Positions 11,504 through 27,477 of a stretch of DNA of 64,000 nt are shown piece by piece. The notes beneath the pieces are model-generated. The model was not told where the DNA came from. It searched no databases and saw only the letters and a program-made list of their open reading frames with translations. Each line of letters starts with the position of its first letter. Position 1 is the first letter of the stretch. A program made the translations under genes and the position numbers. The DNA comes from Clostridium sp. (GTDB taxonomy: Bacteria > Bacillota > Clostridia > Clostridiales > Clostridiaceae), in assembly GCF_022482905.1 (NCBI RefSeq), contig NZ_JAKVOI010000001.1, forward strand, positions 929,958-993,957. Reading direction: 5' to 3'.

Positions 11504-13483
11504 TTAGATTTTAAATTTTAGGATGACTTCATTGAGCTTCTGAGCCAGATCCGTTTGATCTTTGGCGGTTTTATCAACTTGTACCATTCCATGTGCTGCA
11601 TCATTTATAATATCTTGAATTTGCTTAGTACTTTCGGAGGATTTCTGTGCAATTTCAGCCATGCCGTTAATTGCTTTAGTCACCTCATTTGTTGTATTTT
11701 TTATTTCTTCTGTCATCGATGTAAGTTGTCTTAGAGAATCAGATGTAAATTGGGAGTCATTATAATATTTTCCTCCCGTGCTCATATAATTATCCAACTG
11801 GACATTTACATTTTGATCAATAAATTTTAAAATCTGAAGACTGGTATTTGAGAGGTTTTTAAATGCCTCCTGAACTTTTACTACAATATTTTGAATTGTG
11901 GAAACTGTTTCTGAAGATTGTTCAGCCAGAGTTCTCACTTCTTCAGCAACTACTGCAAATCCCTTGCCATGTTCTCCTGCTCTTGCAGATTCAATGGCTG
12001 CATTTAATGACAATAAATTTGTCTGCTCCGCAATATTTGCTATTATATCAGCCATTTCCCTTATTTTTAAAACAACTTTACCCTGATCTATAGCTTTCAG
12101 TATATTTGTTTCTTCGTTTTTATAGATGTCTTTACATTCGATTATTGCAGTTTGAGCATTTTCCTGGACTGAAAGAGCATTTTCCTTGGATTTAATTGCA
12201 TTCATATTTACATTCATTGCCTTATTTGATAATTGATTTATATTTGAATCTATTTCTTCTACAGAAGCGGTAACTTCCTCAGCAGAAGCTGTTGTTTCCT
12301 GGGAACCATTTACAATATCATTTATGGAATTGTTTATATCCTGAAATTGAGATGTCATTTCCTGGACAGTTGCAGAAAGTTCCTGACTGGAAGCACTCAT
12401 GTTTTCGGAATTGTCAATTATGGTCTTTACAAGGGATTTCACGTTCTCCTGGGCTGTATTGAGAGAAAAAGCCGTATCTGCAAATTCATCCTTTCTCCTT
12501 ATAATTATGGGAGTACTGAAATCACATTCAGATAATCTTTTGGCAAATTGTTGTATATGAGTTAAAGGTTCTGTTGCATATTTTGCGATAAATATACCAC
12601 ATATGACAGCTATTGCCGACATAACCAACAAAATTGTAAGAGCCGTTGTAACAGCAGCATTTAGACCTTGTGCATAATCACTCTTAGGACTTACGGCTAT
12701 AACTGTCCATCCCGTTTCCTGGGACTTATTGAATCCAGCTATTTTTGAGTCTTTTCCAGTTCCGTATTTAATATTTCCCCGCTTTTCATCTAGTATGGAT
12801 TGTCCAGAAGAAATTTCCGATTTTATATTTTTCATTACTTTGTCCTTGTTAGAATGTGCAATAATTGTCCCATCCGTTGAAATTAAAAGGGCATATCCAT
12901 TTTTACCTATTTTAGTTGCAGATAATTTGTTCCTCAATGTAGACAGATCAACATCAAACCCCAAAGCGCCTTTTTTGCCGTTATTAAGCTGAACTTTTTT
13001 AGCAATAGTTATGATAATTTTACCCGTGGAAACATCTTTATAAGGTGCAGTTATATATACTTTCCCATTGGCAGCTAAAGTATCTTTATACCACTGCCTG
13101 GATGTTGGATCATAACCTTTAGGTAATTTTACACTTTGAGGATATACTATCAATTGCTTGGTTTCATCCGCCAAATATGACTGCATTATATCCTTGTTAC
13201 TTTGGGTTATGCTTCCAAGTGAGTTTAATAGGGCATTTTTATCCTGCGAAAGTACAGCTTTATTTACCGATAGTGATTGTAAATCATGTTTCAATGATAG
13301 AATTTGTAGATCAACATATGAGACCTTTTCGTCCGATACCTGTTTTGTCAATTCCTTTGCATTGTCATTTATGATTTTAGATGCTATGGAAAAATAAAAA
13401 ACTGATAGTATGAGTACTGGTATTATAACTAGCAAGATTAAGATTCCTACTAATTTATGAAGTAATGATATTTTGCTGTTCAT
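11504..13483 (-). CDS. methyl-accepting chemotaxis protein (Cache-type sensor, HAMP)
   Basis: Signalling hairpin [39 protein letters not shown]-terminal TM, a periplasmic domain of about 260 aa, a second TM and HAMP. Confidence 0.9.
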
Positions 13484-13731: not shown

Positions 13732-14118
13732 TCAGTCGATGCCTTTATAGCATTTTTCACAGGGAAATCCATTTAGTATGCAGATATCCATATTACATTT
13801 TTTCGTTTTTTTAATATATCCTGTTCCCCATTTTATAATTTCAATCATTATAGGAATGAAACTTATACCAATTTCCGTCAAGGAGTATTCCACCTTAGGT
13901 GGTACCTCTCTATATACCTTTCTATTTACAAGTTTGTCTCGTTCAAGTTCTCTCAATTGTTGTGTGAGCACTCCTCTGGAAATGGTCGTCATCAATTTCT
14001 GAAGTTCATTAAAACGCATTGTCTTATTATGAAGAGCCCATAAAATTGGTAATTTCCATTTTCCCATTAATACGTTTTGAGCTAAAGATACAGGGCAAAA
14101 TTTAATTTTATCATTCAC
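13732..14118 (-). CDS. HxlR-family transcriptional regulator with a Cys-rich C-terminal tail
   Basis: FCPVSLAQNVLMGKWKLPILWAL...RFNELQ...LTQQLRELERDKLVNRKVY...PPKVEYSLT is the typical HxlR winged helix. Extra tail: CNMDICILNGFPCEKC. Confidence 0.85.
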   Translation of the reverse strand: MNDKIKFCPVSLAQNVLMGKWKLPILWALHNKTMRFNELQKLMTTISRGVLTQQLRELERDKLVNRKVYREVPPKVEYSLTEIGISFIPIMIEIIKWGTGYIKKTKKCNMDICILNGFPCEKCYKGID

Positions 14119-14249
14119 TTTAAATCCTTATCCTTTCACAATAGTCTATATTATATGACTATGTAATATAAATATGCGTACTTGTAATATAAAGCATATG
14201 CTTATATCATTATATTTGTAATAGATAAAAAAATCAAGGAGGAAAATAA

Positions 14250-14651
14250 ATGGATGAGATAATAAAACTTTTCAAGGAGAATGGATTTGGATTTTTAGCA
14301 ACTGTAGATAATGGGAAGCCTAGAGTAAGACCTTTTGGCTTCATGACCTGGGATGGAGGTAAACTTTATTTCTGCACCAACAGCACAAAAAAAGTTTATA
14401 AACAATTGATTGAATTGCCATATATTGAATATAGCACCACATCAAAGGACATGGTTACGGGAAGAATAAGCGGGAAGGTTGTATTTTCAGATGATAAAGA
14501 AAAAAAAGAACTGGTACTGAATTCATCGGAACTTGTAAAAAATATATATAAATCTTCAGATAATCCTATTTTTAAAATATTCTATATTGAACATGGTACG
14601 GCAACAATTTCAGATTTAACGGGAGAAAACTCTAAAGGAATAGAATTCTAG
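14250..14651 (+). CDS. pyridoxamine 5'-phosphate oxidase-like FMN-binding split-barrel protein
   Basis: 133 aa. GFLATVDNGKPRVRPFGF...GKLYFCTN pattern typical of PNPOx-like proteins. Divergent from the HxlR gene. Confidence 0.7.
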   Translation: MDEIIKLFKENGFGFLATVDNGKPRVRPFGFMTWDGGKLYFCTNSTKKVYKQLIELPYIEYSTTSKDMVTGRISGKVVFSDDKEKKELVLNSSELVKNIYKSSDNPIFKIFYIEHGTATISDLTGENSKGIEF

Positions 14652-14663
14652 TTCAAAAGTATA

Positions 14664-14720
14664 TTGACATGCAGAAAAAATAAATATAAAATACAAATAA
14701 ATAAATGTTTATTTATTTGT
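14664..14720 (+). promoter_or_regulatory. sigma-A-type promoter (TTGACA-17-TAAAAT) followed by a 13-bp-arm inverted repeat; candidate TetR operator
   Basis: TTGACA at 14664-14669 and TAAAAT at 14687-14692. Inverted repeat ACAAATAAATAAA-TG-TTTATTTATTTGT at 14693-14720. Confidence 0.5.
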
Positions 14721-14742
14721 ATTTTTTGGATGGTGATATTAA

Positions 14743-15318
14743 ATGGCTAGAATTGCGGACCCTAAAAAAATGGATAATATCAAGAAAGCGGTGATGGAGT
14801 GTATAATAGATTATGGCTATTCAGGGGTGTCAATTGCTTTAATTTGTAAAAAAGCAGGAGTTTCACCTGGATATTTATATAGATATTATAATAGCAAAGA
14901 AGAATTGGTACAGGAATTGGTAGATTTGGAAATGGGTGTAATAGTCAATAACTTTATATCAGATATTGAATCTTCTGATACCTTGTACGAAGTTGGATAT
15001 AAGACGATAAAGAAATTGTTTATGAATGCAAACAGGAAACCTATGCTGGCAAAATTTGATGCCTCAGTTGTGATGGACCTAAAAATACTGACGGAAGAAA
15101 AATTTAATAATATCTTGAATTTGGCAAAGAAATGTATTGATTTAGGGAAAAAGACAGGTGAAATTAATTCTGATGTAACTGCTGCAGAGGTATTGGTCGT
15201 GTCTTTTACAATCCCATTTAGGTATTTATCATTTTCGCTGGAATTGGAAAATAATAAAAAATTTACAGAAGAAGAAGCTAGGAGAATAGCAAAAATATGT
15301 ATTAATGCGTTAAAGTAA
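14743..15318 (+). CDS. TetR/AcrR-family transcriptional regulator
   Basis: TetR_N HTH: YSGVSIALICKKAGVSPGYLYRYYNSKEELV. Confidence 0.9.
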   Translation: MARIADPKKMDNIKKAVMECIIDYGYSGVSIALICKKAGVSPGYLYRYYNSKEELVQELVDLEMGVIVNNFISDIESSDTLYEVGYKTIKKLFMNANRKPMLAKFDASVVMDLKILTEEKFNNILNLAKKCIDLGKKTGEINSDVTAAEVLVVSFTIPFRYLSFSLELENNKKFTEEEARRIAKICINALK

Positions 15319-15338
15319 TTTTTTTTGCTCAATTAATG

Positions 15339-15355
15339 AATAAATGTTTATTTAT
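15339..15355 (+). promoter_or_regulatory. second copy of the 17-nt core AATAAATGTTTATTTAT between the tetR and MMPL genes
   Basis: Identical 17-mer to the core of the 14693-14720 inverted repeat, read directly. Confidence 0.4.
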
Positions 15356-15452
15356 CAATAGTTAAGTAGGACCAGAGTGCTGTTCATACATATGATCTGA
15401 TTGTATATTTTATTTGGAAAAATAGACGCATAAGAAATGGAGAGAAGCTTTG

Positions 15453-17699
15453 ATGAGAAATGGAATAAAAATTAAACCACTCGACTTAGTAATTAATTTT
15501 ATTGTAAATAAAAGTAAATACATTGAAGTATTTTTTGCAGTTATGGTCCTAATCAGCATGTTTTTATACCTATTTGTGAGGGTTAATTATGATCTCACCA
15601 AATACTTGCCGGATACGGCTGCATCCAAGGCTGGCCTGAATCTTATGGAAAAAGAATTTGGTTATCCAGGCACTGCACGTATTATGATAAAAGATGTATC
15701 ACTGTATCAAGCAAAGCTGTATAAGGAAGAGATAGCGGCAGTAGATGGCGTGGATACGGTTTTCTGGGCGGATACGACAGATGATATTAAAAAATATACT
15801 GATGTATATACGTCCGATACCTTTATAAAAGCTGAAGACATACAGGATTATTACAAGGACAACTGTGCGGTGATGGATATTTCTTTTATTGAAGGTGATT
15901 CTGACACAAGGACATCGAAAGCATTGGACAAGATTCAGAAAATAGTAGGAAACAAGGGGAGGTTTACGGGCCCGGCTGTTCAAAATAAATCCTTGAATGA
16001 GAGCCTGAACAGGGAAATGAAGAGTGCTACAGTAATTGTTGTCATTGTTGTGGCATCGGTACTGCTTCTGACAACAACATCGTGGCTGGAGCCGCTGTTG
16101 TTTCTCCTGGTCATGGGAATCGCCATTGTGATCAATATGGGAACAAACGTGTTTCTGGGGAATATATCATTCATGACGGCAAGTGTGGCTCCCGTCCTTC
16201 AAATGGCTGTTGCAATGGACTACTCCATTTTCTTGATGCACGCTTTTACCAGAGAGAAAGATGCTGGAAAAGAGCCCAAAGAAGCTATTAGAATTGCCAT
16301 ACGCCAATCTTCCTCTTCAATTATTGCATGTGGCATGGCAACCATTATCGGCTTCCTGGCGCTGACAGTAATGAAGTTTTCCATAGGCTATGATCTTGGG
16401 ATTGTTCTGGCAAAAGGAATTTTTATCAGTCTGCTGACGGTTTTGTTTTTGATGCCATCCATGATTATCCGGAGCCAAAAGATGATTCAGAAAACTGCAC
16501 ACCGCAAGCTGGTAAAACTGCCTAAAAATCTGGCCAAAAGTATTTTCAAGGTCAAATATGTGGCACTGGGGCTTGCAATATTTTTGGCAGTGCCATGCTT
16601 TATTGCAAAAGACATGAACAGTTTTCTTTTCGGAAATTCGGCGGTGGGTGCAGGAGAGGGAACTCAGGTTTATAAAGACGAGCAGGAGATTGACAGGATT
16701 TTTGGAAGAAGCAATATGCTTATGGCTCTGGTACCGAATGATTCCATTATCAAGGAGAAGCAGCTGTCCGATGAACTGGGAAAACTGAGTTATGTTAAAA
16801 AGGTAACCTCGCTGGAAAATACACTGCCGGATGGTATACCGGAAACTATCATTCCCAAACAAATAACCAAGCAGTTTCACTCTGAACAATATGCCAGAAT
16901 ACTAGTTTACATAAGGACACGTGAGGAAAGCCACGCTGCATTTCAGTATTCTGATGAAATCAAGTCCATAGTTAAAAAGTATTATCCACAGAGTTCATCA
17001 CTGGTTGGAGCTACACCTTTTACGCAGGATATTAAAACCATTATCACCAGGGATTACACTTTTGTGGACAAACTTTCTCTATTGGGAGTTATAATTGTAG
17101 CGATAATTGTATTTCGCTCATTCCTGATTCCAGTCCTTATTGTAGTACCCATCGAGATAGCCATCTTTTTAAATATGGCAGTACCTTATTTCGTTGGACA
17201 AGATATGATTTTTATGGGTTATATTATTGTCAGCTGCATCCAGCTGGCTGCGACTGTGGACTATGCAATATTGATGACAAACTACTATCTGGAATACCGA
17301 ATGCGGTTGGATAAAAAGAAAGCCATTCTGGAAATGATCTGGGCTGCAGTTCCACCTATTATGAATTCAGGAATTATTCTGTCCTTTGCGGGATATACAC
17401 TTTACTTTACTTCCAGTATTGCGGCCATTGGTGCTATGGGACGTCTTATCGGGCGTGGTGCGCTGCTGAGTATTGCAATGGTAGTTGTATTGCTGCCGGC
17501 ATTACTGTATATTTTTGATTCACAAATCTACAGGCATATTTTGAGGATGAATCGTATGAAAGATAAAATCAGGAAAAAACTCGAGGATAAGCTTCGGCTT
17601 GTTGGAATGTTATCAGAAACATTGAAGAAGAAAACACATTACAAAGGCAATAGTGATGAATCTGTTGAAAGTTTGGAGGGATTGAAGGATGAAAATTAG
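15453..17699 (+). CDS. MMPL-family (RND superfamily) membrane transporter
   Basis: About 750 aa with two blocks of roughly 5-6 TM helices, each preceded by a large extracytoplasmic loop. Typical MMPL segments: VAPVLQMAVAMDYSIFLMHAF and CIQLAATVDYAILMTNYY. The ATG at 15453 follows GGAGAG. Confidence 0.8.
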   Translation: MRNGIKIKPLDLVINFIVNKSKYIEVFFAVMVLISMFLYLFVRVNYDLTKYLPDTAASKAGLNLMEKEFGYPGTARIMIKDVSLYQAKLYKEEIAAVDGVDTVFWADTTDDIKKYTDVYTSDTFIKAEDIQDYYKDNCAVMDISFIEGDSDTRTSKALDKIQKIVGNKGRFTGPAVQNKSLNESLNREMKSATVIVVIVVASVLLLTTTSWLEPLLFLLVMGIAIVINMGTNVFLGNISFMTASVAPVLQMAVAMDYSIFLMHAFTREKDAGKEPKEAIRIAIRQSSSSIIACGMATIIGFLALTVMKFSIGYDLGIVLAKGIFISLLTVLFLMPSMIIRSQKMIQKTAHRKLVKLPKNLAKSIFKVKYVALGLAIFLAVPCFIAKDMNSFLFGNSAVGAGEGTQVYKDEQEIDRIFGRSNMLMALVPNDSIIKEKQLSDELGKLSYVKKVTSLENTLPDGIPETIIPKQITKQFHSEQYARILVYIRTREESHAAFQYSDEIKSIVKKYYPQSSSLVGATPFTQDIKTIITRDYTFVDKLSLLGVIIVAIIVFRSFLIPVLIVVPIEIAIFLNMAVPYFVGQDMIFMGYIIVSCIQLAATVDYAILMTNYYLEYRMRLDKKKAILEMIWAAVPPIMNSGIILSFAGYTLYFTSSIAAIGAMGRLIGRGALLSIAMVVVLLPALLYIFDSQIYRHILRMNRMKDKIRKKLEDKLRLVGMLSETLKKKTHYKGNSDESVESLEGLKDEN

Positions 17700-19881
17700 A
17701 AAAAGAATTATATCAAGTATGCTGGCACTTCTGATTTTGCCGGGCATCGTATCTACAACGGCCATGGCTGCGGCACCAAAAGTGTCGGTGGATGAATCCG
17801 CTTATGTAAATCTGGATTACTATGGATCACCCACCAATATAAATATTGTGAAAAGCTTGAGCTTGAATGGAAATCAACAATTTACGGACTATGGTAAATA
17901 CGATAAAGTAGTTAATATGTCCAACAATGCTGTTCCAACGATGAAAGACGGGGAAATCAACTGGAACTTGAAAAACTACAATGGAAAATTCTATTATGAG
18001 TGTACACCCAAAAACGGAACGGTGGTTTTACCATGGAATGTTGATGTGTCCTATTCTCTCAACGGTACCCCTGTAGATGCATCCAGGCTGCCTGGAGTAT
18101 CAGGACTGGTGCAGATTGATGTAAAGGTAACGCCAAATACCAAGGCCAACATATATTATAAAAATAACATGCTCCTGCAGATGCAGACCATAGTGGATAT
18201 GTCAAAGGCATCCAGTGTGGATGCACCGGGGGCACAGGTTCAGACTATAGGTAATAAAAAGATAGTTATCTTTGCCGCACTTCCAGGAGAGAAAGATACC
18301 TTTACGCTTCGTATCGGCACGGACAGCTTTGAAACCGATGGTATCCTGCTGACCATGGTACCTGGAACCATGAAGCAGCTGCAGGATGTGAAAGAACTTA
18401 AAGATGATATCGACACATATAAAGGTTCACTGGATGATATATATGACAGCACAAATACACTTTTACAGACAGTTGAAAACATGCAGAGCGGTCTGTCGCA
18501 ATCAAGGTCAGGCTTATCTTCGCTGGACCGTGCCAACAGCAGTATGAGTGCATCCAAGGACAGCCTGTTTGACAAGTCTGAAACGGCACTGGCTGATCTT
18601 TCAAAGATTACTGCCAATATGGCCACACTGATTCCGCATATCAATGAGGGTGAAAATGCCATTGAAGACCTGAACTATGATTTGAATGCCATTACAGAAA
18701 CTATTGAAAGTACAAAGACGGAGCTGGAGCAGTACAAGACTTCAATAAAAAATGTACAGGACGACATTAATAAACTGCGTGATGTTGTGAAAGATGTACA
18801 GGACAAATCCGACGAAAGGGATAATCTGCTGCAGCGTACTAAATCGGATATAGGAAATATGAGAACAGACCTGGATAATTTAAGCGACAGCAGCTCCGAT
18901 TTGAGAAACAGTCTAAATGAAATGAGTTCTGACATATCTGACTTATCGGATGTGATGAAAGCTGCAGCATCTGTCACCACTCCGGACTATTCTTCATATT
19001 TTACATCAACGGATGGCCAGATCCTGTACAAGACACTTATGGCAATGAATGACAGCTTGAAGACAATGAGTTCCTATATTGCTTCAACGCTATCATCCAC
19101 GGCTGAAGTATCTGATTCTGCAGGTGATATGTTGAGCGAAACATCCGATGTATGTGAAGATGGAGAAGATTACTTGAACACTGCATCCAGAAGCATATCC
19201 TTGATGGAAGATTATTTCCAGGATTTTGATAAGGCAAATGAGGTTACGGATGATATGCTTGGTGAACAAAAGCAGATACTGTCAACGACCGACAGTATGC
19301 TGACAAAAAGCGGAGCTCTTATTGACAATATTTCGGCAATCAACAATACAGCCAACAAGTACAAGAGCAGCTCCATAAAAACACTGCAGGATATGGAAGT
19401 CCTGCTGAAAAGCATGGTGAAGGGTCTTGACAGTTCACAGAGTTTTCTGGGAAGTTTTGAGTCTACACTCAAAAACAGCAGTGGCGATATTAGCAAGGGC
19501 AACAGTGATACGCTCAAGGGTCTCATCAGTGTATTGAAGCAAAGTCTTGAAGGAATTAAAAGTACACCTGTAATGAGAAAGGCAAATGATTCTATCAAGT
19601 CTACTGCAGACAAGGAAATCGATAAGTTTGAGAATGAGAACAGGCTTCTGTATCTTGATCCGGAAGCAAAGTTAATTTCGTTTACTTCCAGCAAGAACCC
19701 TTCACCAAGGAGCATCCAGATAATTATGAGAACGCAGGAAATAAACAAGGACAGTGGCAATGACGATATTTCGAGTGCAGATAAGGACAAGCAAGACAAG
19801 GGTGTGCTTTACAGAATCGGTCGTGTGTTTGTTGAACTAAAGAACGATGTAGTATCAGTTTTCTCAAATATAAATCAGTAA
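17689..19881 (+). CDS. secreted protein: signal peptide, ~200-aa beta-rich domain and ~450-aa Ser/Asp/Asn-rich coiled-coil region (function unknown)
   Basis: N-terminus MKIRKRIISSMLALLILPGIVSTTAMA-AAP looks like an SPase I signal peptide, and no other TM helix is present. Overlaps the MMPL stop by 11 nt, with a GGAGGG RBS. The long helical region resembles the ectodomains of the YhgE/Pip proteins downstream. Confidence 0.7.
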   Translation: MKIRKRIISSMLALLILPGIVSTTAMAAAPKVSVDESAYVNLDYYGSPTNINIVKSLSLNGNQQFTDYGKYDKVVNMSNNAVPTMKDGEINWNLKNYNGKFYYECTPKNGTVVLPWNVDVSYSLNGTPVDASRLPGVSGLVQIDVKVTPNTKANIYYKNNMLLQMQTIVDMSKASSVDAPGAQVQTIGNKKIVIFAALPGEKDTFTLRIGTDSFETDGILLTMVPGTMKQLQDVKELKDDIDTYKGSLDDIYDSTNTLLQTVENMQSGLSQSRSGLSSLDRANSSMSASKDSLFDKSETALADLSKITANMATLIPHINEGENAIEDLNYDLNAITETIESTKTELEQYKTSIKNVQDDINKLRDVVKDVQDKSDERDNLLQRTKSDIGNMRTDLDNLSDSSSDLRNSLNEMSSDISDLSDVMKAAASVTTPDYSSYFTSTDGQILYKTLMAMNDSLKTMSSYIASTLSSTAEVSDSAGDMLSETSDVCEDGEDYLNTASRSISLMEDYFQDFDKANEVTDDMLGEQKQILSTTDSMLTKSGALIDNISAINNTANKYKSSSIKTLQDMEVLLKSMVKGLDSSQSFLGSFESTLKNSSGDISKGNSDTLKGLISVLKQSLEGIKSTPVMRKANDSIKSTADKEIDKFENENRLLYLDPEAKLISFTSSKNPSPRSIQIIMRTQEINKDSGNDDISSADKDKQDKGVLYRIGRVFVELKNDVVSVFSNINQ

Positions 19882-19909
19882 AATTCCAAATAAATAAAAT
19901 TTCTTTTGA

Positions 19910-19956
19910 GCTTATTCAGACGGCATATATTTGACGCCTGAATAAGCTTATTTTTA
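19910..19956 (+). terminator. intrinsic terminator after the secreted-protein gene
   Basis: GCTTATTCAG (19910-19919) pairs with CTGAATAAGC (19938-19947), followed by TTATTTTTATTT. Confidence 0.6.
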
Positions 19957-20053
19957 TTTAAAACTGTTATCGATTTTTAGAATACAGACTGATAAATAAG
20001 GATACCATATAAGTACTTAAAAAATTTACACATATTTTATGGGAGTGTGCAGG

Positions 20054-22219
20054 ATGATAAGAAACATTACCAGTATATTTAGAAGAGATGTAATGACCAT
20101 TATAAAAAATAAAGCGGCACTTGTAATTTTAGTAGGAGTGTGTATAATGCCATGCCTATATACACTGGTAAATGTAAAGGCAATCTGGAACCCATATTCA
20201 AGTGCCAAATTGAGTAATATTTCCATAGCTGTGGTAAACAGGGATCATGGTACCATATTTCAAAATAGGTATATAAATATTGGAAACGAAGTTGTAAGCA
20301 ATCTAAAGAGAAATCATGATATTGGATGGAAATTTGTTGATCCTGAAGAAGCCTATCAGGGGATGATGTATGGAAAATATTATGCTGAAATTGAGATACC
20401 CGAAGATTTTTCTTCTGACCTTTCAAGTATAATTACAAATACTCCAAGAAGGGCTCGGATACTTTATAAGACGAATACGAAGAACAGTCCCATGGGGACC
20501 AAAATCACTGAAAGTGCAGTTAACTCTCTTGTGAGTTCCATAAAATCAAATTTTATATATTCAGTGAACAAGGCTGTATTTTCTTCTCTGAATATTATAG
20601 GGGGAAAAGCAGATAAAGGTAAATTCCAGATAATAGACATGAAAGATTCATTAATAGCTCTAGGTAACAATATGGACCTTGTTACAGCGGTACTTGGAAG
20701 CATAAATGACAGCTCCAGCAGTATTGCACTGATTCTTACTCAGTTAAAGCCGGTTATTTATGCATCTGAAAATGTGAACATAACAAATCCGTTAACTGAT
20801 GATAATGAAGAACTCATAAAATCAATAAAACTTTCTCTGAACAGTTCATTTGATAATATCCAGGTTAATTTGAACAATGCCAAAGCAAATATATATGGAC
20901 TTCAGACACTTGCGGACAATCTGGATTCACTGACTCAAGGAGCAGACTCTTCGAATATAAAATCCGTGGCAGACAAAATGAATTACCAGATAGATATGCT
21001 GAACAATGAAATAGACAATGTAATAGACTTTTCACAGGCAGTAAACGGATTTGCACACAGCAGCAAAATATCAAATTTTTTAAATTCCTTAAGTGATATA
21101 AAAGATTGGTTGAGTAGTGAGAAGAACAATATAAACAATCTTCAGAAGAATTTAAACAATACAGATCAGATAAGCAGTGACCTGAAGAATTCCATAGTTA
21201 ACAATACATGGAAAGCAAGGTTGAAGCTCATTAATGCAATTGACGAGTACAATAATGAAGTAAGGAGAGAGTTAAATTCCATAGCTGATAATTTAATTGT
21301 GTCTTCGAACAATTCTGCTGACATTTTGGAGACTGCAAGGAATATGAACAGTCAGGGTATAAAGTCCATAGATACTTTGATAAATGGAAGCAGACTTGTA
21401 GCTGATTCCTCTGGAAAACTTGAAAATAAGCTCCTTCAATTTAAGAATCCTATTATAAATCTCAGCAACGAACTAAAGCTTATAAATAATAATGATATAG
21501 TGAAAATAATAACAGTACTTCAAAACAATCCTGAACTCATGGGAAATTTCATGGCTAATCCGTTTAATATAAAGGAAGAAAATATTTATACAATTCCCAA
21601 CTTCGGATCAGCTTTTGCACCTACTTATATGACAATTTCCATATGGGTAGGTTGTACCATGCTTGCAGCAATGCTTAAAACAACTGCAGCCAAATTTATA
21701 GGATCTGAAAGATTATCTCTGAGAGAGGAGTATCTTGGTAAGATGCTGATTTTTATTGCAATTTCCATAATACAATCTCTTATAATTGTATTTACCAGCA
21801 GGTTTATACTTCACGTTTATACTAAAAGTTTTTTCCTCATGATAATGTTTGGATTATTTTCATCTCTGGCATTTTCAACAATAGTATACGGCATGGTATC
21901 CATATTTGGGAATCTTGGAAAGGCACTGGCAGTTTTATTGGTTGTAATACAGATGGCAGGAAGTGGAGCTACTTATCCCATACAGCTCAATCCATTGATT
22001 TTAAGAATATTTCAACCTATGTTTCCATTCACCTATAGTCTAAGCGGATTTAGAGAATCAATTGGTGGTCCACTAATAAGTACTGTAGTTATGGATTTTT
22101 CAATGCTTATTCTTATGTCTGTAATTGCCGTATTAGTAGGATTATTTTTGAAAAGGCCTCTCAATGGGATAATGAGCAGACTTCACAGCAAATTCACAGA
22201 GTCAGGTATTGGAGTATAA
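20054..22219 (+). CDS. YhgE/Pip domain-containing membrane protein (phage-infection-protein / EsaA-like topology)
   Basis: N-terminal TM, then the SIAVVNRDHG motif, a helical ectodomain of about 450 aa, and a C-terminal 5-TM ABC-2-like bundle (MTISIWVG...GSGATYPIQL...FPFTYSLSGFRE). The ATG at 20054 follows GGGAGTG. Confidence 0.8.
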   Translation: MIRNITSIFRRDVMTIIKNKAALVILVGVCIMPCLYTLVNVKAIWNPYSSAKLSNISIAVVNRDHGTIFQNRYINIGNEVVSNLKRNHDIGWKFVDPEEAYQGMMYGKYYAEIEIPEDFSSDLSSIITNTPRRARILYKTNTKNSPMGTKITESAVNSLVSSIKSNFIYSVNKAVFSSLNIIGGKADKGKFQIIDMKDSLIALGNNMDLVTAVLGSINDSSSSIALILTQLKPVIYASENVNITNPLTDDNEELIKSIKLSLNSSFDNIQVNLNNAKANIYGLQTLADNLDSLTQGADSSNIKSVADKMNYQIDMLNNEIDNVIDFSQAVNGFAHSSKISNFLNSLSDIKDWLSSEKNNINNLQKNLNNTDQISSDLKNSIVNNTWKARLKLINAIDEYNNEVRRELNSIADNLIVSSNNSADILETARNMNSQGIKSIDTLINGSRLVADSSGKLENKLLQFKNPIINLSNELKLINNNDIVKIITVLQNNPELMGNFMANPFNIKEENIYTIPNFGSAFAPTYMTISIWVGCTMLAAMLKTTAAKFIGSERLSLREEYLGKMLIFIAISIIQSLIIVFTSRFILHVYTKSFFLMIMFGLFSSLAFSTIVYGMVSIFGNLGKALAVLLVVIQMAGSGATYPIQLNPLILRIFQPMFPFTYSLSGFRESIGGPLISTVVMDFSMLILMSVIAVLVGLFLKRPLNGIMSRLHSKFTESGIGV

Positions 22220-22243
22220 GTATTGAAATGGGAGTGACACCAA

Positions 22244-24403
22244 ATGAAGGTTGTATTTAAAATATTAAAAAGGGATTTTAGAAGTATAACAGGAAATCTT
22301 GCTGTACTCATAACTATTATAATATTCTGCTTTCTTCCATCTTCTTATGCAATTGTTAATATAAAAGCATCCTGGGATCCATACTCAAAAACTAATACGA
22401 GCAGGCTTCCCATTGCAGTGGTCAATAAGGATGAAGGCGGCAGTATTAACGGAAAAACTATAAATGTGGGAAATCAGATTATAAATGAATTAAAAAAGGA
22501 CAGAAGTATCAACTGGGTTACCATAGACGAGTGGCAGGGAAACTATGGACTTAATACTGGAAAGTACTATTCATTGATAGAAATTCCAGAGGATTTTTCA
22601 AACAGGCTTCTTACGCTTGTTACTCCGGAGCCTCAAAAACCAAATATAGTATATAGATCTAATGAGAAACTGAATGCAGCGGCTACAGAAATTACAAGCC
22701 AGGCGAAAGATGTACTGGCAGACCGGATCAAATCAAATTTTGTAAAAATAAGCAGTAGAGAAGTTCTAAAACAGATGAATTACGCAGGTAAAAGATTAAA
22801 CGATTATAAACCTGAAATTTTACAGATTAAGGATTCTCTGGAGAATTCCATTAAAGTCATAGATGAAACAAAAAAATATTTATCGGGAATAAATGAAAAT
22901 TCAAGGGAAATGCAGGATTACCTGAATAAGCTTAAAAATGATACTCCAAAGCTTTTCAAGCAGATGGATAGCCTTCAGAATATTGTAAGTCATGGCAAAT
23001 CACTTGCCCAGTCCACAAGACAGACTGTAAGTTCAGCACAGAGCGATCTGTCAAGCGGGATAAATGAGATCCAGTCCCGGAATACTCAGCTTCAAGCCAT
23101 TTTGTCAGGACTTGAAAATATGAATAGTGAATTTGTAAATCCAACTGTTGTAAACAATGCTATAGATCAGATGGATAATCTAAGCGATTCAATGATAGAA
23201 AAAATCGACAGTAATATCAAAATACTCAATACTATAGATAATGTACTGCCAAACAATGGTGCGGTGAAACTCATAGATGCTCTGAGCAATATGAAGAATA
23301 CCATGCAGATGGAAAAAGGTTACCTTTTACAATTGAAGCAGCTCATCAACATTAATGGCTCAAAGGAAAATATAGATTCAATTATAGCTCAGCTCTCTAA
23401 AATAGGAAATCAACTGTCATCAGATACAGCGAATATATATGATGTTTATTCAAGTACCGGACAGATGCTGGACAATATGAGTGATAATGTTGATAGAAGC
23501 CTGGAGAGTTATGATAAGATTCTTCAATCTACAAAAGAAATTATCCCACAGCTTAATTTGCTGGCAAATACAGGCATTTCAATCAGTGAAATATCAATCT
23601 CGCATATAAATCAGATAAACAAAAGACTTGGTGATATTCAAAACAAGCTGGATCAGTTAAGCAGCAGCATGAATATGATAAATGAAAAAAATCTTGATTA
23701 CATAATACATATAATGTGGGAAAATCCTGAAATTTCAAACCTATTGTCATCGCCGGTAGAGTTGAAAAACGTTCAGCTTTATAATCTTGGATTATTTGGA
23801 TATGGAGTAACTCCTTTTTATACTACGCTGTCCATATGGGTTGGCATACTTCTTCTCTCAACCATACTTACATGTAGATGCAGAGAATTTGAAGATGGAA
23901 CAAAAGTCAATATGATTCAGGAATATTCAGGAAAATTATTTCTCTTTATGGGCCTTTCTTTAATACAGACATCTGTAACTATTCTCGGAGAATTTTTGAT
24001 ATTGGGAATAAGGCCAATGAATATACCTGCCATGATAGAAGTTGCATTTATGACCAGTATAACATTTTCCGTAATAATCTTCACATGTATATTCATATTA
24101 GGAAATGTAGGAAAAGCCCTGGTTACAGTTCTCATGATATTCCAAATTTTTGGAACAGGTGGTATATATCCTCTTGAAATTATTTCAACAAGACTTGCCA
24201 ACATGGCACCATTTTTGCCATTTACATACTCCATAAATGGGTTCAGGGAAGCAATTGGAGGCCCAAATTGGGATCACCTTCTTAAAATATTTGGAATGTT
24301 TGGCTGTTTTATGGGGGCATTTTTTATAATCACTCCTCTTAAAAAGGTATTTCAAAAGCAGATACAGCAGATGGAAAATGAATTTAAAAAGTCACAACTT
24401 TAA
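22244..24403 (+). CDS. YhgE/Pip domain-containing membrane protein (paralogue)
   Basis: Same architecture as the previous gene: PIAVVNKDEGG, a long helical ectodomain, and TTLSIWVG...GTGGIYPLEI...LPFTYSINGFREA. Confidence 0.8.
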   Translation: MKVVFKILKRDFRSITGNLAVLITIIIFCFLPSSYAIVNIKASWDPYSKTNTSRLPIAVVNKDEGGSINGKTINVGNQIINELKKDRSINWVTIDEWQGNYGLNTGKYYSLIEIPEDFSNRLLTLVTPEPQKPNIVYRSNEKLNAAATEITSQAKDVLADRIKSNFVKISSREVLKQMNYAGKRLNDYKPEILQIKDSLENSIKVIDETKKYLSGINENSREMQDYLNKLKNDTPKLFKQMDSLQNIVSHGKSLAQSTRQTVSSAQSDLSSGINEIQSRNTQLQAILSGLENMNSEFVNPTVVNNAIDQMDNLSDSMIEKIDSNIKILNTIDNVLPNNGAVKLIDALSNMKNTMQMEKGYLLQLKQLININGSKENIDSIIAQLSKIGNQLSSDTANIYDVYSSTGQMLDNMSDNVDRSLESYDKILQSTKEIIPQLNLLANTGISISEISISHINQINKRLGDIQNKLDQLSSSMNMINEKNLDYIIHIMWENPEISNLLSSPVELKNVQLYNLGLFGYGVTPFYTTLSIWVGILLLSTILTCRCREFEDGTKVNMIQEYSGKLFLFMGLSLIQTSVTILGEFLILGIRPMNIPAMIEVAFMTSITFSVIIFTCIFILGNVGKALVTVLMIFQIFGTGGIYPLEIISTRLANMAPFLPFTYSINGFREAIGGPNWDHLLKIFGMFGCFMGAFFIITPLKKVFQKQIQQMENEFKKSQL

Positions 24404-24522
24404 ATGTTGCCTTATAGGGCATTTTTTACGTAATCTTATTGACATCAGTACTACTACGTGTTACTATATAGCAGTAATAAGTAATACTTCATACAAGTCA
24501 TACAAAATAGCAAGAGGTGATT

Positions 24523-24852
24523 ATGCTGGAAAACCTAACGGAAATGCTCAAAGGCGTGCTTGAGGGCTGTGTTCTTGAAATAATCAGCCGCAAAGAAACC
24601 TATGGCTACGAAATCACACGGCGGCTGAATGCCCTCGGCTTCACAGATGTTGTGGATGGAACGGTGTACACCATTCTGATCCGGCTTGAAAGAAGCAAGC
24701 TGGTAGAGGTCACCAAAAAACCCTCCGACAAGGGACCGCCGCGAAAATTTTTCCTGCTCAATGACAGGGGGCGTGAAGAGCTGCAGAAGTTCTGGAAAAA
24801 ATGGGAGTTCATATCATCAAAAATTAATGAGTTAAAGGAGGAGCAATTTTAA
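24523..24852 (+). CDS. PadR-family transcriptional regulator
   Basis: GVLEGCVLEIISRKETYGYEITRRL...DGTVYTILIRLERSKLV...RKFFLLNDRGREEL matches the canonical PadR winged helix. The ATG at 24523 follows AGAGGTGA. Confidence 0.9.
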   Translation: MLENLTEMLKGVLEGCVLEIISRKETYGYEITRRLNALGFTDVVDGTVYTILIRLERSKLVEVTKKPSDKGPPRKFFLLNDRGREELQKFWKKWEFISSKINELKEEQF

Positions 24853-25220
24853 TGTCTGAGTTTTTTGACAATTATTTGAATATCAAAAAAATTGTGAAGA
24901 ACAAGCGGGAGTACAAACGACAGATGAAAAGAGTTGAAGCTCTGCCGGAAGATTATCAGTATGTATTTAAAAAAATCCAGAAATACATGTGGATGTTTGC
25001 AGCGGGTTCAGGATATGACATGATAAAGATCCATTATGACCTGATAGAACTATTTGAGGCCGGTGCGGCGGAAGGAAAGCATGTTTTGGAAATTACCGGT
25101 GAGGATGTGGCAGCGTTCTGCGACGAACTTCTGCGCAATGCCAGGACATATACGGAAGACTGGCACCAGGCGCTCAACCGTGACATACTGAAAAAGTTCG
25201 GAAGGGAGAAAAAACAATGA
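24852..25220 (+). CDS. DUF1048-like protein (PadR-associated), paralogue 1
   Basis: 122 aa. KREYKRQMKRVEALPEDYQYVFKKIQKY...ELFEAGAAEGKHVLEITGEDVAAFCDELL. Start overlaps the PadR stop (TAATG). Confidence 0.7.
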   Translation: MSEFFDNYLNIKKIVKNKREYKRQMKRVEALPEDYQYVFKKIQKYMWMFAAGSGYDMIKIHYDLIELFEAGAAEGKHVLEITGEDVAAFCDELLRNARTYTEDWHQALNRDILKKFGREKKQ

Positions 25221-25573
25221 ATTTTTGGGAAAAGATAACAGGCAGCGACATGACTAAAGAAATGAAAACTTTTGAATTGCGTGCCAAAAAGCTGCCGGAT
25301 GATTACCAAGCGGCATGGGAAAAAATTAATGCTAATCTTTGGCCGCACTCAGATTTCACTGGCCGCAACCTGATGCCGATTCTTGACAGTGTACTCGGTT
25401 TTCTCGAAGAAGCAGCGGTGGACGGTGAGAGTGTTCAGGAGGTTTTGGGTGACGATATCAAAGGCTTCTGTTCAGCGCTGGCCGGTGAAGAAGGGGCAAA
25501 ATCTTATCGCGACAAGTGGCGTCAGCAGCTCAACAATAATGTTGCCAGGAAATTAAGTAGATTAGATAAATAG
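25217..25573 (+). CDS. DUF1048-like protein, paralogue 2
   Basis: 118 aa with the same pattern (LPDDYQAAWEKINANLW...GESVQEVLGDDIKGFCSAL). ATGA overlap with the previous gene. Confidence 0.7.
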   Translation: MNFWEKITGSDMTKEMKTFELRAKKLPDDYQAAWEKINANLWPHSDFTGRNLMPILDSVLGFLEEAAVDGESVQEVLGDDIKGFCSALAGEEGAKSYRDKWRQQLNNNVARKLSRLDK

Positions 25574-25582
25574 GAGGATGAA

Positions 25583-25933
25583 ATGAGAATACAGGATATC
25601 ATCGAAGGCAAAAAAGAGTGGCGGGCGCACATGGCACGTGTCAAAGCGCTCCCGCAGGATTATCAGATTGTTTATAAAGAGATTCAAAAATATCTCTTTA
25701 AGGTCGGCGTTGTTGAGCTAACCGACGTGATGGGTTTGCTCTCGGGGATTATGGATCTTTTTGAAGAGGGCGCATCCTCGGGGAAAAACGTGCTCGAAGT
25801 GACGGGCCGTGACGTAGCGGCTTTTTGCGACGATCTGATTAAAGATTCAAAAACTTACGTTGACATCTATCAGGAATCTGTTGATCAGGAAGTTAGCAAG
25901 GCTATGAAAAAAGTTATGGATAAAACAAAGTGA
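25583..25933 (+). CDS. DUF1048-like protein, paralogue 3
   Basis: 116 aa. KEWRAHMARVKALPQDYQIVYKEIQKY...LFEEGASSGKNVLEVTGRDVAAFCDDL. AGGAGGA RBS. Confidence 0.7.
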   Translation: MRIQDIIEGKKEWRAHMARVKALPQDYQIVYKEIQKYLFKVGVVELTDVMGLLSGIMDLFEEGASSGKNVLEVTGRDVAAFCDDLIKDSKTYVDIYQESVDQEVSKAMKKVMDKTK

Positions 25934-25947
25934 AAGGGGATATGGGA

Positions 25948-26706
25948 ATGGAAAAAGCAATTCAAGTGAAAGAACTTAAAAAGTCCTACAAGCAGCTTCA
26001 AGTTCTGAAAGGCGTGGATTTTGAAGTAGAGAAAGGCAGCATTTTCGCCCTGCTGGGATCAAACGGGGCAGGTAAGACCACCATCGTCAAAATCCTCACC
26101 ACACTGCTGAAACCGGATGGTGGAACCGCAGCTGTCAACGGGTTTGATGTGGTGAAGGAACCTGACTATGTACGGCAGTCCATAAGTCTCACCGGGCAGT
26201 TTGCTGCTGTGGACGAGATCCTGACCGGACGGGAAAATCTTATCATGATTGCCAAACTGAGGCATCTCAAAAATCCGCATCAGGTGGCGGAAGATTTATT
26301 AAGCCGTTTCGGACTGGACGATGCTGCCGACCGCAGGGTTTCCGCCTATTCGGGTGGAATGCGCCGCAGGCTCGACATCGCCATGAGCCTGATTGGAAAA
26401 CCGCAGCTTATTTTTCTAGATGAGCCCACTACCGGGCTTGACCCCGAGGCACGCATCGAGGTCTGGAACATTGTCAAAGAACTTGCCAAGAGCGGAACAA
26501 CGGTGCTCCTGACCACGCAGTATTTGGAGGAAGCCGAGCAGCTTGCGGATCAAATAGCCATTTTGCATGAGGGCAGGATTATCGTGAGCGGCACGCTGGC
26601 GGAACTTAAAAAACTGTTCCCGCCTGCCAGGGTGGAGTACATTGAAAAACAGCCGGGCCTGGAGGAAATATTCCTTGCAATTGTCGGCAAGAAGGAGGAA
26701 AAATAA
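25948..26706 (+). CDS. ABC transporter ATP-binding protein (DrrA/ABC-2 exporter type)
   Basis: Walker A GSNGAGKTT, signature YSGGMRRRL, Walker B LIFLDEPTTGLD. I prefer the ATG at 25948 over the track's GTG at 25930. Confidence 0.9.
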   Translation: MEKAIQVKELKKSYKQLQVLKGVDFEVEKGSIFALLGSNGAGKTTIVKILTTLLKPDGGTAAVNGFDVVKEPDYVRQSISLTGQFAAVDEILTGRENLIMIAKLRHLKNPHQVAEDLLSRFGLDDAADRRVSAYSGGMRRRLDIAMSLIGKPQLIFLDEPTTGLDPEARIEVWNIVKELAKSGTTVLLTTQYLEEAEQLADQIAILHEGRIIVSGTLAELKKLFPPARVEYIEKQPGLEEIFLAIVGKKEEK

Positions 26707-27477
26707 ATGGAAACAATAAAGAGACACTTTTTCAGCGACACGGGTGTGATGCTGGAACGTTCCATGCGCCATATTACCCGCAGCATGGACACCATCATCA
26801 CGGTAACCATCATGCCGATTGCGATGATGCTGTTGTTCGTCTATGTGTTAGGTGGTGCCATACAAACCAGTACAGATAACTATGTGAACTATCTTCTGCC
26901 GGGCATTCTGATGATGGCGATCGCCAGCGGTATATCATATACGGCTTTCCGTCTGTTTATGGATATGCAGAGCGGCATCTTCGAAAGGTTCCACTCCATG
27001 CCTGTTGCACCTTCGGCTGCACTGTGGGGGCATGTGCTGACCTCACTGGTATCCAATGCGATTTCGGTTGTCGTCATCATTCTCGTGGCACTGATTATGG
27101 GATTTCGCTCATCGGCAGGAGTATTGTCGTGGCTTGCCGTGGCTGGTATACTTGCACTTGTTACACTGGCCTTGACCTGGATCGCGGTAATTCCCGGACT
27201 GACTGCAAAATCGGTGGACGGTGCGAGCGCCTTTTCCTATCCGCTTATCTTCCTGCCGTTTATCAGCTCGGCCTTTGTGCCGACGGAATCAATGCCGGGT
27301 CCTGTCCGCGCCTTTGCCGAAAACCAGCCGGTCACTTTCATCGTGGACGCCATTCGTTCCCTGCTGGCGGGGCAGTCTGTAGGAAATGATATTTGGGCTG
27401 CACTTGCATGGTGTCTGGGTATTCTTGTTGTTGCGTATTTATTCGCAATAAGGATTTATAAACGTAAGGCAGCTTAA
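26707..27477 (+). CDS. ABC-2 type transporter permease
   Basis: 256 aa with six predicted TM helices. Immediately follows the ATPase stop (TAAATG). Confidence 0.85.
   Translation: METIKRHFFSDTGVMLERSMRHITRSMDTIITVTIMPIAMMLLFVYVLGGAIQTSTDNYVNYLLPGILMMAIASGISYTAFRLFMDMQSGIFERFHSMPVAPSAALWGHVLTSLVSNAISVVVIILVALIMGFRSSAGVLSWLAVAGILALVTLALTWIAVIPGLTAKSVDGASAFSYPLIFLPFISSAFVPTESMPGPVRAFAENQPVTFIVDAIRSLLAGQSVGNDIWAALAWCLGILVVAYLFAIRIYKRKAA

Follow-up and report, generated by a model that had tools for sequence, protein, structure and literature searches.

Gene organization of the locus

Within a stretch of 64,000 nucleotides from Clostridium sp. (contig NZ_JAKVOI010000001.1; this whole stretch is called the window), five co-directional open reading frames (ORFs) on the forward strand encode a TetR-family repressor, an MMPL-type permease of resistance–nodulation–division (RND) type, a secreted 730-amino-acid (aa) coiled-coil protein, for which we coined the label CC730, and two tandem YhgE/Pip membrane proteins. 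A preliminary description of this DNA had read the five genes as one multi-component envelope or export machine. Here we analysed the gene content, the conservation and the predicted regulation of the locus, and the likely role of CC730.

The sequence features listed in the preliminary description were all present, namely the five ORFs at the positions given there, the overlap of the MMPL and CC730 genes, a terminator and the paralogous YhgE/Pip genes. The tetR gene (14743–15318) encodes a protein of 191 aa, which matched TetR_N (PF00440) with 48.5 bits (cut-off 24) and thus belongs to the TetR family. The MMPL gene extends from 15453 to 17699. Its true start is probably ATG 15453 rather than TTG 15450, the position chosen by the ORF tool, because a ribosome-binding site (GGAGAG) lies upstream and the orthologue likewise has 748 aa. 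The deduced protein matched PF03176 in two stretches with 168.1 bits (cut-off 20.5), which assigns it to the MMPL family. The CC730 gene (17689–19881) begins 11 nt before the end of the MMPL stop codon; its product matched no Pfam or NCBIfam family and gave coiled-coil noise only. YhgE/Pip-1 (YhgE-1, 721 aa) is encoded at 20054–22219. In this case too the start set by the ORF tool (20039) was moved, as a conserved ribosome-binding site (GGAGTG) and the length of the orthologues (721 aa) indicate that ATG 20054 is probably the true start. YhgE/Pip-2 (YhgE-2, 719 aa; 22244–24403) starts 24 nt past the YhgE-1 stop codon. Both proteins are members of the YhgE/Pip family, with scores for TIGR03061 and TIGR03062 of 141.6 and 137.9 bits (YhgE-1) and of 138.5 and 133.7 bits (YhgE-2), above the cut-offs of 96.15 and 102.2 bits, and they are full-length paralogues of each other (28% identity, E = 6e-97). 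In the following, unit A designates tetR–MMPL–CC730 with its control regions (14664–19961) and unit B the YhgE/Pip pair (about 20054–24430).

CC730 genes are linked to MMPL genes across Clostridia

To examine the conservation of the gene order, a profile built from 20 CC730 homologues was used to collect 189 loci from contigs representing one genome per species, and the best 80 were taken with 10-kb flanks. Genes in these loci were called by ORF-based heuristics. Neighbours were detected by comparing the window proteins with all ORFs of the 80 loci by phmmer; flanking ORFs were clustered and representatives scanned against Pfam.

An MMPL gene was found directly upstream of the CC730 gene and in the same orientation in 79 of the 80 loci. 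The remaining one, L067, cannot be judged, as its contig measures only 2.9 kb. The pairing occurs in Clostridiaceae, Oscillospiraceae, Lachnospiraceae, Syntrophomonadaceae, Peptostreptococcaceae and Peptococcia, and it holds in an abundant gut-metagenome cluster too. As every informative locus (79/79) has kept the partner across family-level divergence, the linkage is unlikely to be neutral. This supports one part of the proposed export machine, namely that MMPL and CC730 form a functionally linked module; the inclusion of YhgE/Pip did not hold (see below). With the conserved YVNLD motif as the reference for locating CC730 starts, 51 of 76 loci showed an overlap between the MMPL stop and the CC730 start; the median distance was −11 nt, the value also seen in the window. 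Across Clostridia the MMPL partners are 55–62% identical, compared with 35–45% for CC730 in the same taxa. A TetR_N protein of approximately 200 aa is encoded directly upstream in 46 of the 80 loci, and no other neighbour is common to most of them. YhgE/Pip genes were detected within 10 kb of none of the 80 CC730 genes, either by phmmer or with a YhgE profile hidden Markov model (HMM), and none of the 2,702 ORFs from these loci matched the profile HMM in the YhgE N-terminal or ABC-2 membrane regions.

The CC730 homologues (n = 903) all come from Clostridia, apart from a few labels on metagenome-assembled genomes. Four such contigs (L038, L040, L046 and L065) carry the names Prevotella sp. CAG:279, Solirubrobacterales, Paludibacteraceae and Bacteroides thetaiotaomicron. 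These labels likely reflect binning contamination and not the presence of MMPL–CC730 in diderm Bacteroidota or in Actinomycetota.

Two further kinds of genes recur beside the pair. In at least nine loci (e.g. L038:6711-7571 and L089:2572-3540), a gene for a choline-binding (cell-wall-binding) repeat protein immediately precedes MMPL–CC730 in the same direction; this is also found in the abundant gut cluster P0106 with 4,550 member sequences. DUF5688 proteins are encoded divergently upstream in 18 Lacrimispora/Hungatella-type loci.

The MMPL permease

Sequences from the PDB that matched the permease were those of MmpL4, MmpL5 and MmpL3; they were recovered with both halves of the protein, and MmpL4 and MmpL5 were the best matches. 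A simple hydropathy scan indicated nine strong transmembrane segments and two extracytoplasmic loops (residues ~44–194 and 387–546), a picture compatible with the 12-TM layout of the family, in which large loops follow TM1 and TM7. Both loops are plain, of about 150 aa, and carry no coiled-coil insertion. The protein scored below the cut-offs of the more narrowly defined families HAE3 (TIGR00921, 132.6 bits, cut-off 351.9) and actinobacterial MmpL (TIGR00833, 139.8 bits, cut-off 874.7).

CC730 has a conserved base and a variable helical region

CC730 can be divided into a signal peptide (aa 1–27) ending in an A-x-A site, a β-domain (28–227), a helical hairpin (228–650) and a C-terminal module (651–730) composed of a β-strand and an amphipathic helix. 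A full-length AlphaFold2 model (mean predicted local distance difference test score, pLDDT, 70.5) placed the β-domain at residues 33–225 (pLDDT 85–90), helical arms at ~228–427 and 441–650, a short β-strand at 675–682 and the terminal amphipathic helix at 706–726. The N-domain modelled on its own reached a pLDDT of 91.9 and a predicted template modelling score (pTM) of 0.82.

All homologues inspected possess a Sec-type signal peptide with an A-x-A end, followed by P-x-V-S/T-x-D-E-x-x-YVNLDYYG. An exhaustive phmmer search recovered the N-domain in 1,958 representative clusters at 50% identity, and in the 150 best listed, evident fragments aside, it occupies residues ~28–240 of proteins of 600–930 aa. 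Conservation centres on the N-domain and on the C-terminal module, which shows the motif …NLLNLDAEAKxISFTSxKNPSPxSIQIILRTxEI…, then an acidic linker and then the amphipathic helix. The helical region between them, above all its tip, is variable in sequence and length; the length of the spacer that separates the conserved modules varies around a median of 407 aa (interquartile range 385–438, full range 177–580). The protein of the window carries every mark of the family: signal peptide, β-domain of ~200 aa (YVNLDYYG … FAALPGE), helical region of ~400 aa, C-terminal module and an MMPL gene directly upstream.

In public databases CC730 homologues are labelled 'hypothetical' or as SMC- or SbcC-like; P0002, P0004, P0007 and P0010, for instance, are called 'chromosome segregation protein' or 'SbcCD ATPase subunit'. 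Evidently, these SMC/SbcCD labels are mis-annotations of a secreted protein that are driven by its coiled coil.

Comparison with known families gave no assignment. At thresholds as loose as E ≤ 10, the N-domain and the C-terminal module were without a match among the Pfam and NCBIfam models. With regard to MmpS, a small protein with an N-terminal transmembrane helix and an Ig-like domain, neither the whole 730-aa protein nor the N-domain had a Pfam match at E ≤ 10, and no MmpS chains were among the Foldseek matches. For HlyD-type adaptors, TIGR01843 scored 15.5 bits (cut-off 208.65) in the coiled-coil region only, and Foldseek returned no adaptor structures. For MCE proteins, TIGR00996 (17.9 bits, cut-off 140.5) and PF11887 (below its cut-off) both hit the coiled-coil region, and no MCE structures were matched. 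Pfam and NCBIfam scans detected no SLH, CW_binding_2, choline-binding, LPXTG or adhesin domains. Thus, the 730-aa protein is not a recognizable member of the adhesin or S-layer families, an identity that the preliminary description had named as incompatible with its proposal.

Searches with the complete protein were dominated by its helices. The CC730 profile retrieved coiled-coil noise alone from PDB sequences (myosin, SMC and chemoreceptors) and was uninformative. Coiled coils likewise dominated the Foldseek matches of the full-length model, and the search was rerun with the N-domain model alone. The best PDB matches of this domain were the eukaryotic mu-homology domains of clathrin adaptors with a template modelling (TM) score of about 0.5, which we treated as a generic resemblance between two-lobed β-sandwiches and not as kinship.

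Regulatory sequences of unit A

Unit A begins with a sigma-70-type promoter on the plus strand (14664–14692), in which a −35 hexamer TTGACA (14664–14669) and a −10 hexamer TAAAAT (14687–14692) are separated by a 17-nt spacer and together match 11 of 12 positions. This was the top-scoring promoter match within 14000–25000, and it is kept in the three related-species loci compared (L001, L037 and L081, the last from Clostridium sp. LBM24168). A candidate operator, O1, is formed by a perfect 15+15-bp inverted repeat, ATACAAATAAATAAA-TG-TTTATTTATTTGTAT, at 14691–14722. It begins inside the −10 hexamer and overlaps the start-site region, which bears out the promoter-overlapping palindrome noted previously for tetR; the tetR promoter is overlapped by a putative palindromic operator. 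A second candidate, O2 (15334–15357), is a shorter palindrome with the same core, located in the gap from the tetR stop to the MMPL start.

Exactly two copies of the 17-mer core AATAAATGTTTATTTAT are present in the window, at 14700–14716 (O1) and at 15339–15355 (O2), which confirmed the two 17-nt sites reported before; no third copy was present in the 64 kb and none 5′ of YhgE-1. In C. luticellarii, C. aromativorans and LBM24168 both sites are unchanged in sequence and location, and the spacers around them differ in length and sequence. Conservation of the sites within diverged intergenic DNA is good comparative evidence that O1 and O2 are operators. Unit A ends with an intrinsic terminator on the plus strand (19907–19961), consisting of a stem (19907–19950) and a U-run (19951–19961). 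Its folding energy is −20.3 kcal/mol (z = −5.0), none of 200 shuffled sequences folded as well, and it is conserved in LBM24168.

The closest solved relatives of the TetR protein are FadR-type, acyl-CoA-binding TetR proteins (35–38 bits). With the model for FadR-type TetR proteins (NF053878) it scored 44.5 bits, far below the curated cut-off of 200, and the similarity was taken as a lead on the class of ligand only.

The locus of LBM24168 differs in gene content. There, an inserted Amidohydro_2 gene (L081:3298-4320) separates tetR, with its O2, from the MMPL gene; downstream, a further TetR gene is present. The resulting operon amidohydrolase–MMPL–CC730 may provide a clue to the substrate.

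The YhgE/Pip pair constitutes a separate unit

Unit B closes with a hairpin followed by a T-run that resembles a terminator (24408–24430, plus strand; stem 24408–24421, then TTTTTTACGT). Tracing YhgE-1 orthologues in their contigs showed that the tandem pair is conserved in eight of nine contexts; in C. botulinum the gene is present only once. Six contexts show the pair alone among unrelated neighbours, with no MMPL–CC730 nearby: C. tyrobutyricum, C. kluyveri, C. ljungdahlii, C. baratii, C. estertheticum and one metagenome scaffold. On the other side, C. luticellarii and C. aromativorans (77% identical) share their gene order with the window from the HxlR gene upstream of tetR to the CC730 stop codon and no further: the stop is followed by MFS and chemoreceptor genes in one of the two species and by EamA and PGI genes in the other. 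Units A and B adjoin only in the window, in a near-identical 8.3-kb contig and in LBM24168 (78% identical). Hence, the five-gene unit put forward in the preliminary description failed the survey of conserved synteny, with no YhgE/Pip genes at any of the 80 CC730 loci and YhgE pairs standing alone in six contexts. We attribute the adjacency of the two units to a recent rearrangement alone.

In C. tyrobutyricum, C. kluyveri and C. ljungdahlii the YhgE pairs are preceded by a conserved promoter, TATTGACA, and by a palindrome, ACTGAC(TA/CG)GTCAGT (L082:8900-9000, L083:8900-9000 and L084:6900-7000). From its sequence, ACTGAC-NN-GTCAGT looks like the operator of a regulator that is not encoded adjacently.

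With the EsaA model TIGR03929 the two YhgE proteins scored 64.2 and 78.4 bits (cut-off 122), and no genes of a type VII secretion system were found among the annotated neighbours between 11.5 and 27.5 kb. Probably, the two proteins assemble in the membrane into a hetero-oligomeric complex whose 'there-and-back' ectodomain resembles that of EsaA/Pip, with neither an ATPase partner nor a link to unit A.

In C. estertheticum (L087:1-2993) an AcrB/MMPL-type RND gene of 1,027 aa occurs on the strand opposite to the YhgE pair, approximately 4 kb upstream of it. The intervening genes encode a two-component system and a trypsin-like protease, and CC730 is absent. We judged this proximity to be coincidental.

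Resemblance between the ectodomains of CC730 and YhgE

The preliminary description had also emphasized that the large non-MMPL proteins share helical ectodomains rich in Ser, Asp and Asn. As a statement on composition this was correct: the helical regions contain 15.8, 11.8 and 6.1% of S, D and N, respectively, in CC730, 11.8, 7.8 and 16.2% in YhgE-1, and 12.1, 7.2 and 12.1% in YhgE-2. As a statement on homology it was not sustained. The YhgE profile HMM did match 79 CC730 ORFs with up to 62 bits, solely via HMM positions ~170–500, and these matches were attributed to periodicity and composition: reversed CC730 sequences still reached a median of 25.8 bits compared with 33.8 bits for the real ones, and shuffled sequences about −4 bits. 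BLASTP aligned short coiled-coil segments only (E about 0.006), the N-domains could not be aligned (hhalign probability 0.2%), and profile scans detected neither the YhgE N- and C-terminal domains nor the ABC-2 membrane domain in CC730. At the level of sequence, the resemblance is compositional only and does not reflect homology. Since the composition is shared without homology, CC730 and YhgE can be regarded as two independent solutions to one geometric problem, a long S/D/N-rich 'there-and-back' helical ectodomain at a monoderm surface. The same argument is spelled out in the work on EsaA, of which a 20-nm fragment has been solved; the wall there measures 30–50 nm, and phages use the tip as receptor (doi 10.1101/2020.08.17.254201).

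Proposed role of CC730

Taken together, the locus very probably comprises two independent modules and not one machine; the strong terminator between the units and the lack of a TetR operator before YhgE-1 both argue for their separation. The reading that we favour overall, with a probability of about 0.6, is that of two units in which CC730 serves an inducible MMPL exporter as its obligate accessory subunit on the extracytoplasmic side. Physical partnership between CC730 and MMPL appears somewhat more probable than not.

Unit A would be an autoregulated, TetR-repressed operon. Judging from the conserved palindromes, a TetR dimer would occupy O1 over the −10 hexamer and the start site as well as O2 before the MMPL gene, and a lipophilic, possibly acyl-like, ligand would free it. 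MMPL proteins export by means of the proton-motive force. The induced permease would then expel a hydrophobic or amphiphilic compound out of the membrane; that this substrate is a lipid or resembles a fatty acid is a tentative suggestion. CC730 would be made in a fixed ratio with the pump via the overlapping stop and start codons, exported by the Sec system and released from its signal peptide. We infer that its base (β-domain, C-terminal β-strand and amphipathic helix) docks on the porter domains of the pump or on the membrane surface. From there the variable antiparallel hairpin, with arms of ~200 residues and thus a length of at most about 30 nm (200 × 0.15 nm), might reach into or through the thick Gram-positive wall. 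The pattern of a conserved base with a variable stalk and tip fits a subunit that docks on a pump and faces the environment; it fits less well with a specific distal partner. A role of CC730 as wall-spanning stalk or conduit is conceivable but doubtful. The same reserve applies to the broadest form of the proposal, according to which CC730 might define a class of accessory subunits for monoderm RND/MMPL pumps, spread over ~2,000 clusters from gut and environmental Clostridia, in which the β-base docks and the ~30-nm hairpin oligomerizes into a wall-spanning stalk or tube as the Gram-positive, in-trans counterpart of the coiled-coil tube of MmpL4/MmpL5.

Several observations weigh against the favoured reading. 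The basal helices of CC730 were modelled with low confidence (pLDDT 50–65; full-chain pTM 0.41), and for that reason the single long hairpin and its length of 30 nm are upper bounds. By hydropathy the cleaved protein has no transmembrane anchor, so that release from the cell is possible. Its β-domain showed no structural likeness to MmpS, periplasmic adaptors, MCE domains or EsaA in Foldseek searches, and the FadR resemblance of TetR is weak, below the curated cut-off. Concerning the separation of the units, the YhgE-type promoter and its palindrome ACTGACNNGTCAGT are missing in the window and both are also absent from LBM24168, and the 98 nt between the terminator and YhgE-1 contain no consensus sigma-70 promoter. 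Because the usual promoter is lost and no consensus promoter precedes YhgE-1, read-through of the terminator could contribute to YhgE expression in this lineage. If it occurs, such read-through would be a lineage-specific regulatory accident and not evidence of a conserved machine.

Among the alternatives, the one that survives best is that CC730 stands on the receiving side of export, as a secreted coiled-coil protein of the surface or wall. The lipid exported by MMPL would be bound or received by this protein or would modify it, or else the protein would coat and protect the outer membrane face under the same stress. The predicted strict co-transcription suits this model equally, and so do the cleavable signal peptide without a transmembrane anchor, the fast evolution of helical region and tip, which is reminiscent of surface-exposed proteins, and the choline-binding repeat proteins encoded directly upstream of MMPL in at least nine loci. 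We nevertheless consider it improbable: so widespread an overlap of stop and start implies that the two proteins are made stoichiometrically, as is typical of the subunits of a complex; conservation is highest in the base domain and in the C-terminal amphipathic helix, as expected for a docking surface; and wall-anchoring motifs or lipid-binding folds were not found in CC730.

Far less probable is a single envelope or export machine that unites the YhgE/Pip pair with MMPL and CC730. The juxtaposition is kept in LBM24168 and in the near-identical 8.3-kb contig, the loss of the usual YhgE promoter and operator makes a read-through controlled by TetR conceivable, and long S/D/N-rich helical ectodomains are common to CC730, YhgE-1 and YhgE-2. 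Against this stand the absence of YhgE/Pip within 10 kb of all 80 MMPL–CC730 loci, two equally close relatives that lack the YhgE pair at this position, the pairs found alone in six other contexts, the strong terminator, the missing TetR operator, and an ectodomain similarity that survives sequence reversal between proteins with unrelated N-domains. A narrower version, in which the pair was recruited behind the operon in this lineage alone and cooperates with it, is likewise unlikely. Finally, that CC730 is an adhesin, an S-layer-like or a phage-receptor-type protein whose linkage to MMPL means nothing mechanistically can practically be set aside: its long secreted coiled coil with a variable tip and a weak whole-model Foldseek likeness to enterococcal PrgA (E = 2e-3) speak for it, but a partner kept in 79 of 79 informative loci across families is not expected for a neutral linkage, and SLH, CW_binding_2, LPXTG and adhesin domains were not found.

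An accessory subunit of the MMPL exporter, as favoured here, would bear on a general problem. Gram-positive RND/MMPL pumps are poorly understood, in particular how an exported lipid or drug passes a wall of 30–50 nm. The components of unit B and the pairing of TetR with MMPL are of kinds already known; CC730 as a putative type of accessory subunit is the new part. Pfam, NCBIfam, the PDB and the searchable literature yielded no description of the family or of its obligate pairing with MMPL. Literature searches on YhgE and MMPL, on MMPL with Clostridium, TetR and coiled coil, and on recent YhgE/Pip work returned neither an MMPL–CC730 or MMPL–YhgE pairing nor a native function of YhgE. The family has many members, abundant gut-metagenome clusters among them, and no Pfam or NCBIfam model covers it. 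In addition, the analysis removes the MMPL–YhgE/Pip machine as a tempting but false lead and describes the tandem YhgE/Pip pairs as a conserved stand-alone unit in Clostridium.

Neighbouring genes

Directly upstream of tetR, a divergent gene for an HxlR-type regulator (13732–14118, minus strand) and a gene for a PNPOx-like flavoprotein (14250–14651) were found. C. luticellarii and LBM24168 show the same gene order here, and the two genes probably form a separate redox-responsive pair. Further upstream, the minus strand (11504–13483) encodes a methyl-accepting chemotaxis protein, whose domains are dCache_1, HAMP and MCPsignal; it is unrelated to the finding. Straight after the YhgE pair, 24517–27477 constitutes an operon of its own with genes for PadR, three tandem DUF1048 proteins, an ABC ATPase and an ABC-2 permease. 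Its GC content (0.41–0.47) is above that of its neighbours. In C. tyrobutyricum a PadR–DUF1048–ABC–ABC-2 operon likewise lies just 3′ of the YhgE pair, and in LBM24168 a PadR–DUF1048 pair is placed upstream of the HxlR gene.

Comparison with known systems

With YhgE, Pip and EsaA, CC730 shares the elongated 'there-and-back' helical ectodomain able to cross a wall of 30–50 nm (doi 10.1101/2020.08.17.254201). It differs from them in the lack of the YhgE N- and C-terminal domains and of the ABC-2 domain, and the similarity is one of composition. The periplasmic adaptors HlyD, AcrA and MacA are alike in concept: they also combine β-rich domains near the membrane, to which N- and C-terminal segments both contribute, with an α-helical hairpin that projects from the transporter, and they are co-transcribed with their pump. 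No match in sequence or fold was found, however, the hairpin of CC730 is several times longer and its tip is not conserved, and a monoderm offers no outer-membrane partner.

In Staphylococcus aureus, the TetR-family regulator FarR and the MmpL-type RND pump FarE confer inducible fatty-acid resistance (PMC12671165, PMC10019231). As in unit A, a TetR-type regulator adjoins an MMPL-family pump in a Firmicute, and the TetR protein of the window is nearest to fatty-acyl-responsive FadR-type regulators. In the Far papers retrieved, with the far locus itself not inspected, no CC730-like partner is reported (PMC12671165, PMC10019231), and the parallel is one of description.

Close parallels are the mycobacterial MmpS5–MmpL5 and MmpS4–MmpL4, in which a permease of the same Pfam family is combined with an operon-encoded accessory protein, control by a repressor and a long extracytoplasmic antiparallel coiled coil. 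The repressor there is of the MarR type and here of the TetR type, and the host here is a monoderm Clostridium. CC730 is unrelated to MmpS, has another β-fold and lacks a transmembrane anchor. In MmpL5 an antiparallel coiled-coil insertion of 196 aa is required for efflux and has been modelled as a trimeric tube of ~18 nm (PMC12501195). This insertion is located in PD2, whereas in Clostridium the coiled coil resides on the separate secreted 730-aa protein and the MMPL loops are plain, of ~150 aa each. The arms of CC730 comprise ~200 aa each, compared with 196 aa in total for the insertion. CC730 might thus give in trans what the insertion of MmpL5 gives in cis. The mycobacterial coiled coil was shown in 2025 to be essential for efflux, and a tube was proposed (PMC12501195). 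The strictly co-inherited and translationally coupled CC730 represents a genetically separable coiled coil, so that the stalk can be deleted, truncated or swapped while the pump is left untouched.

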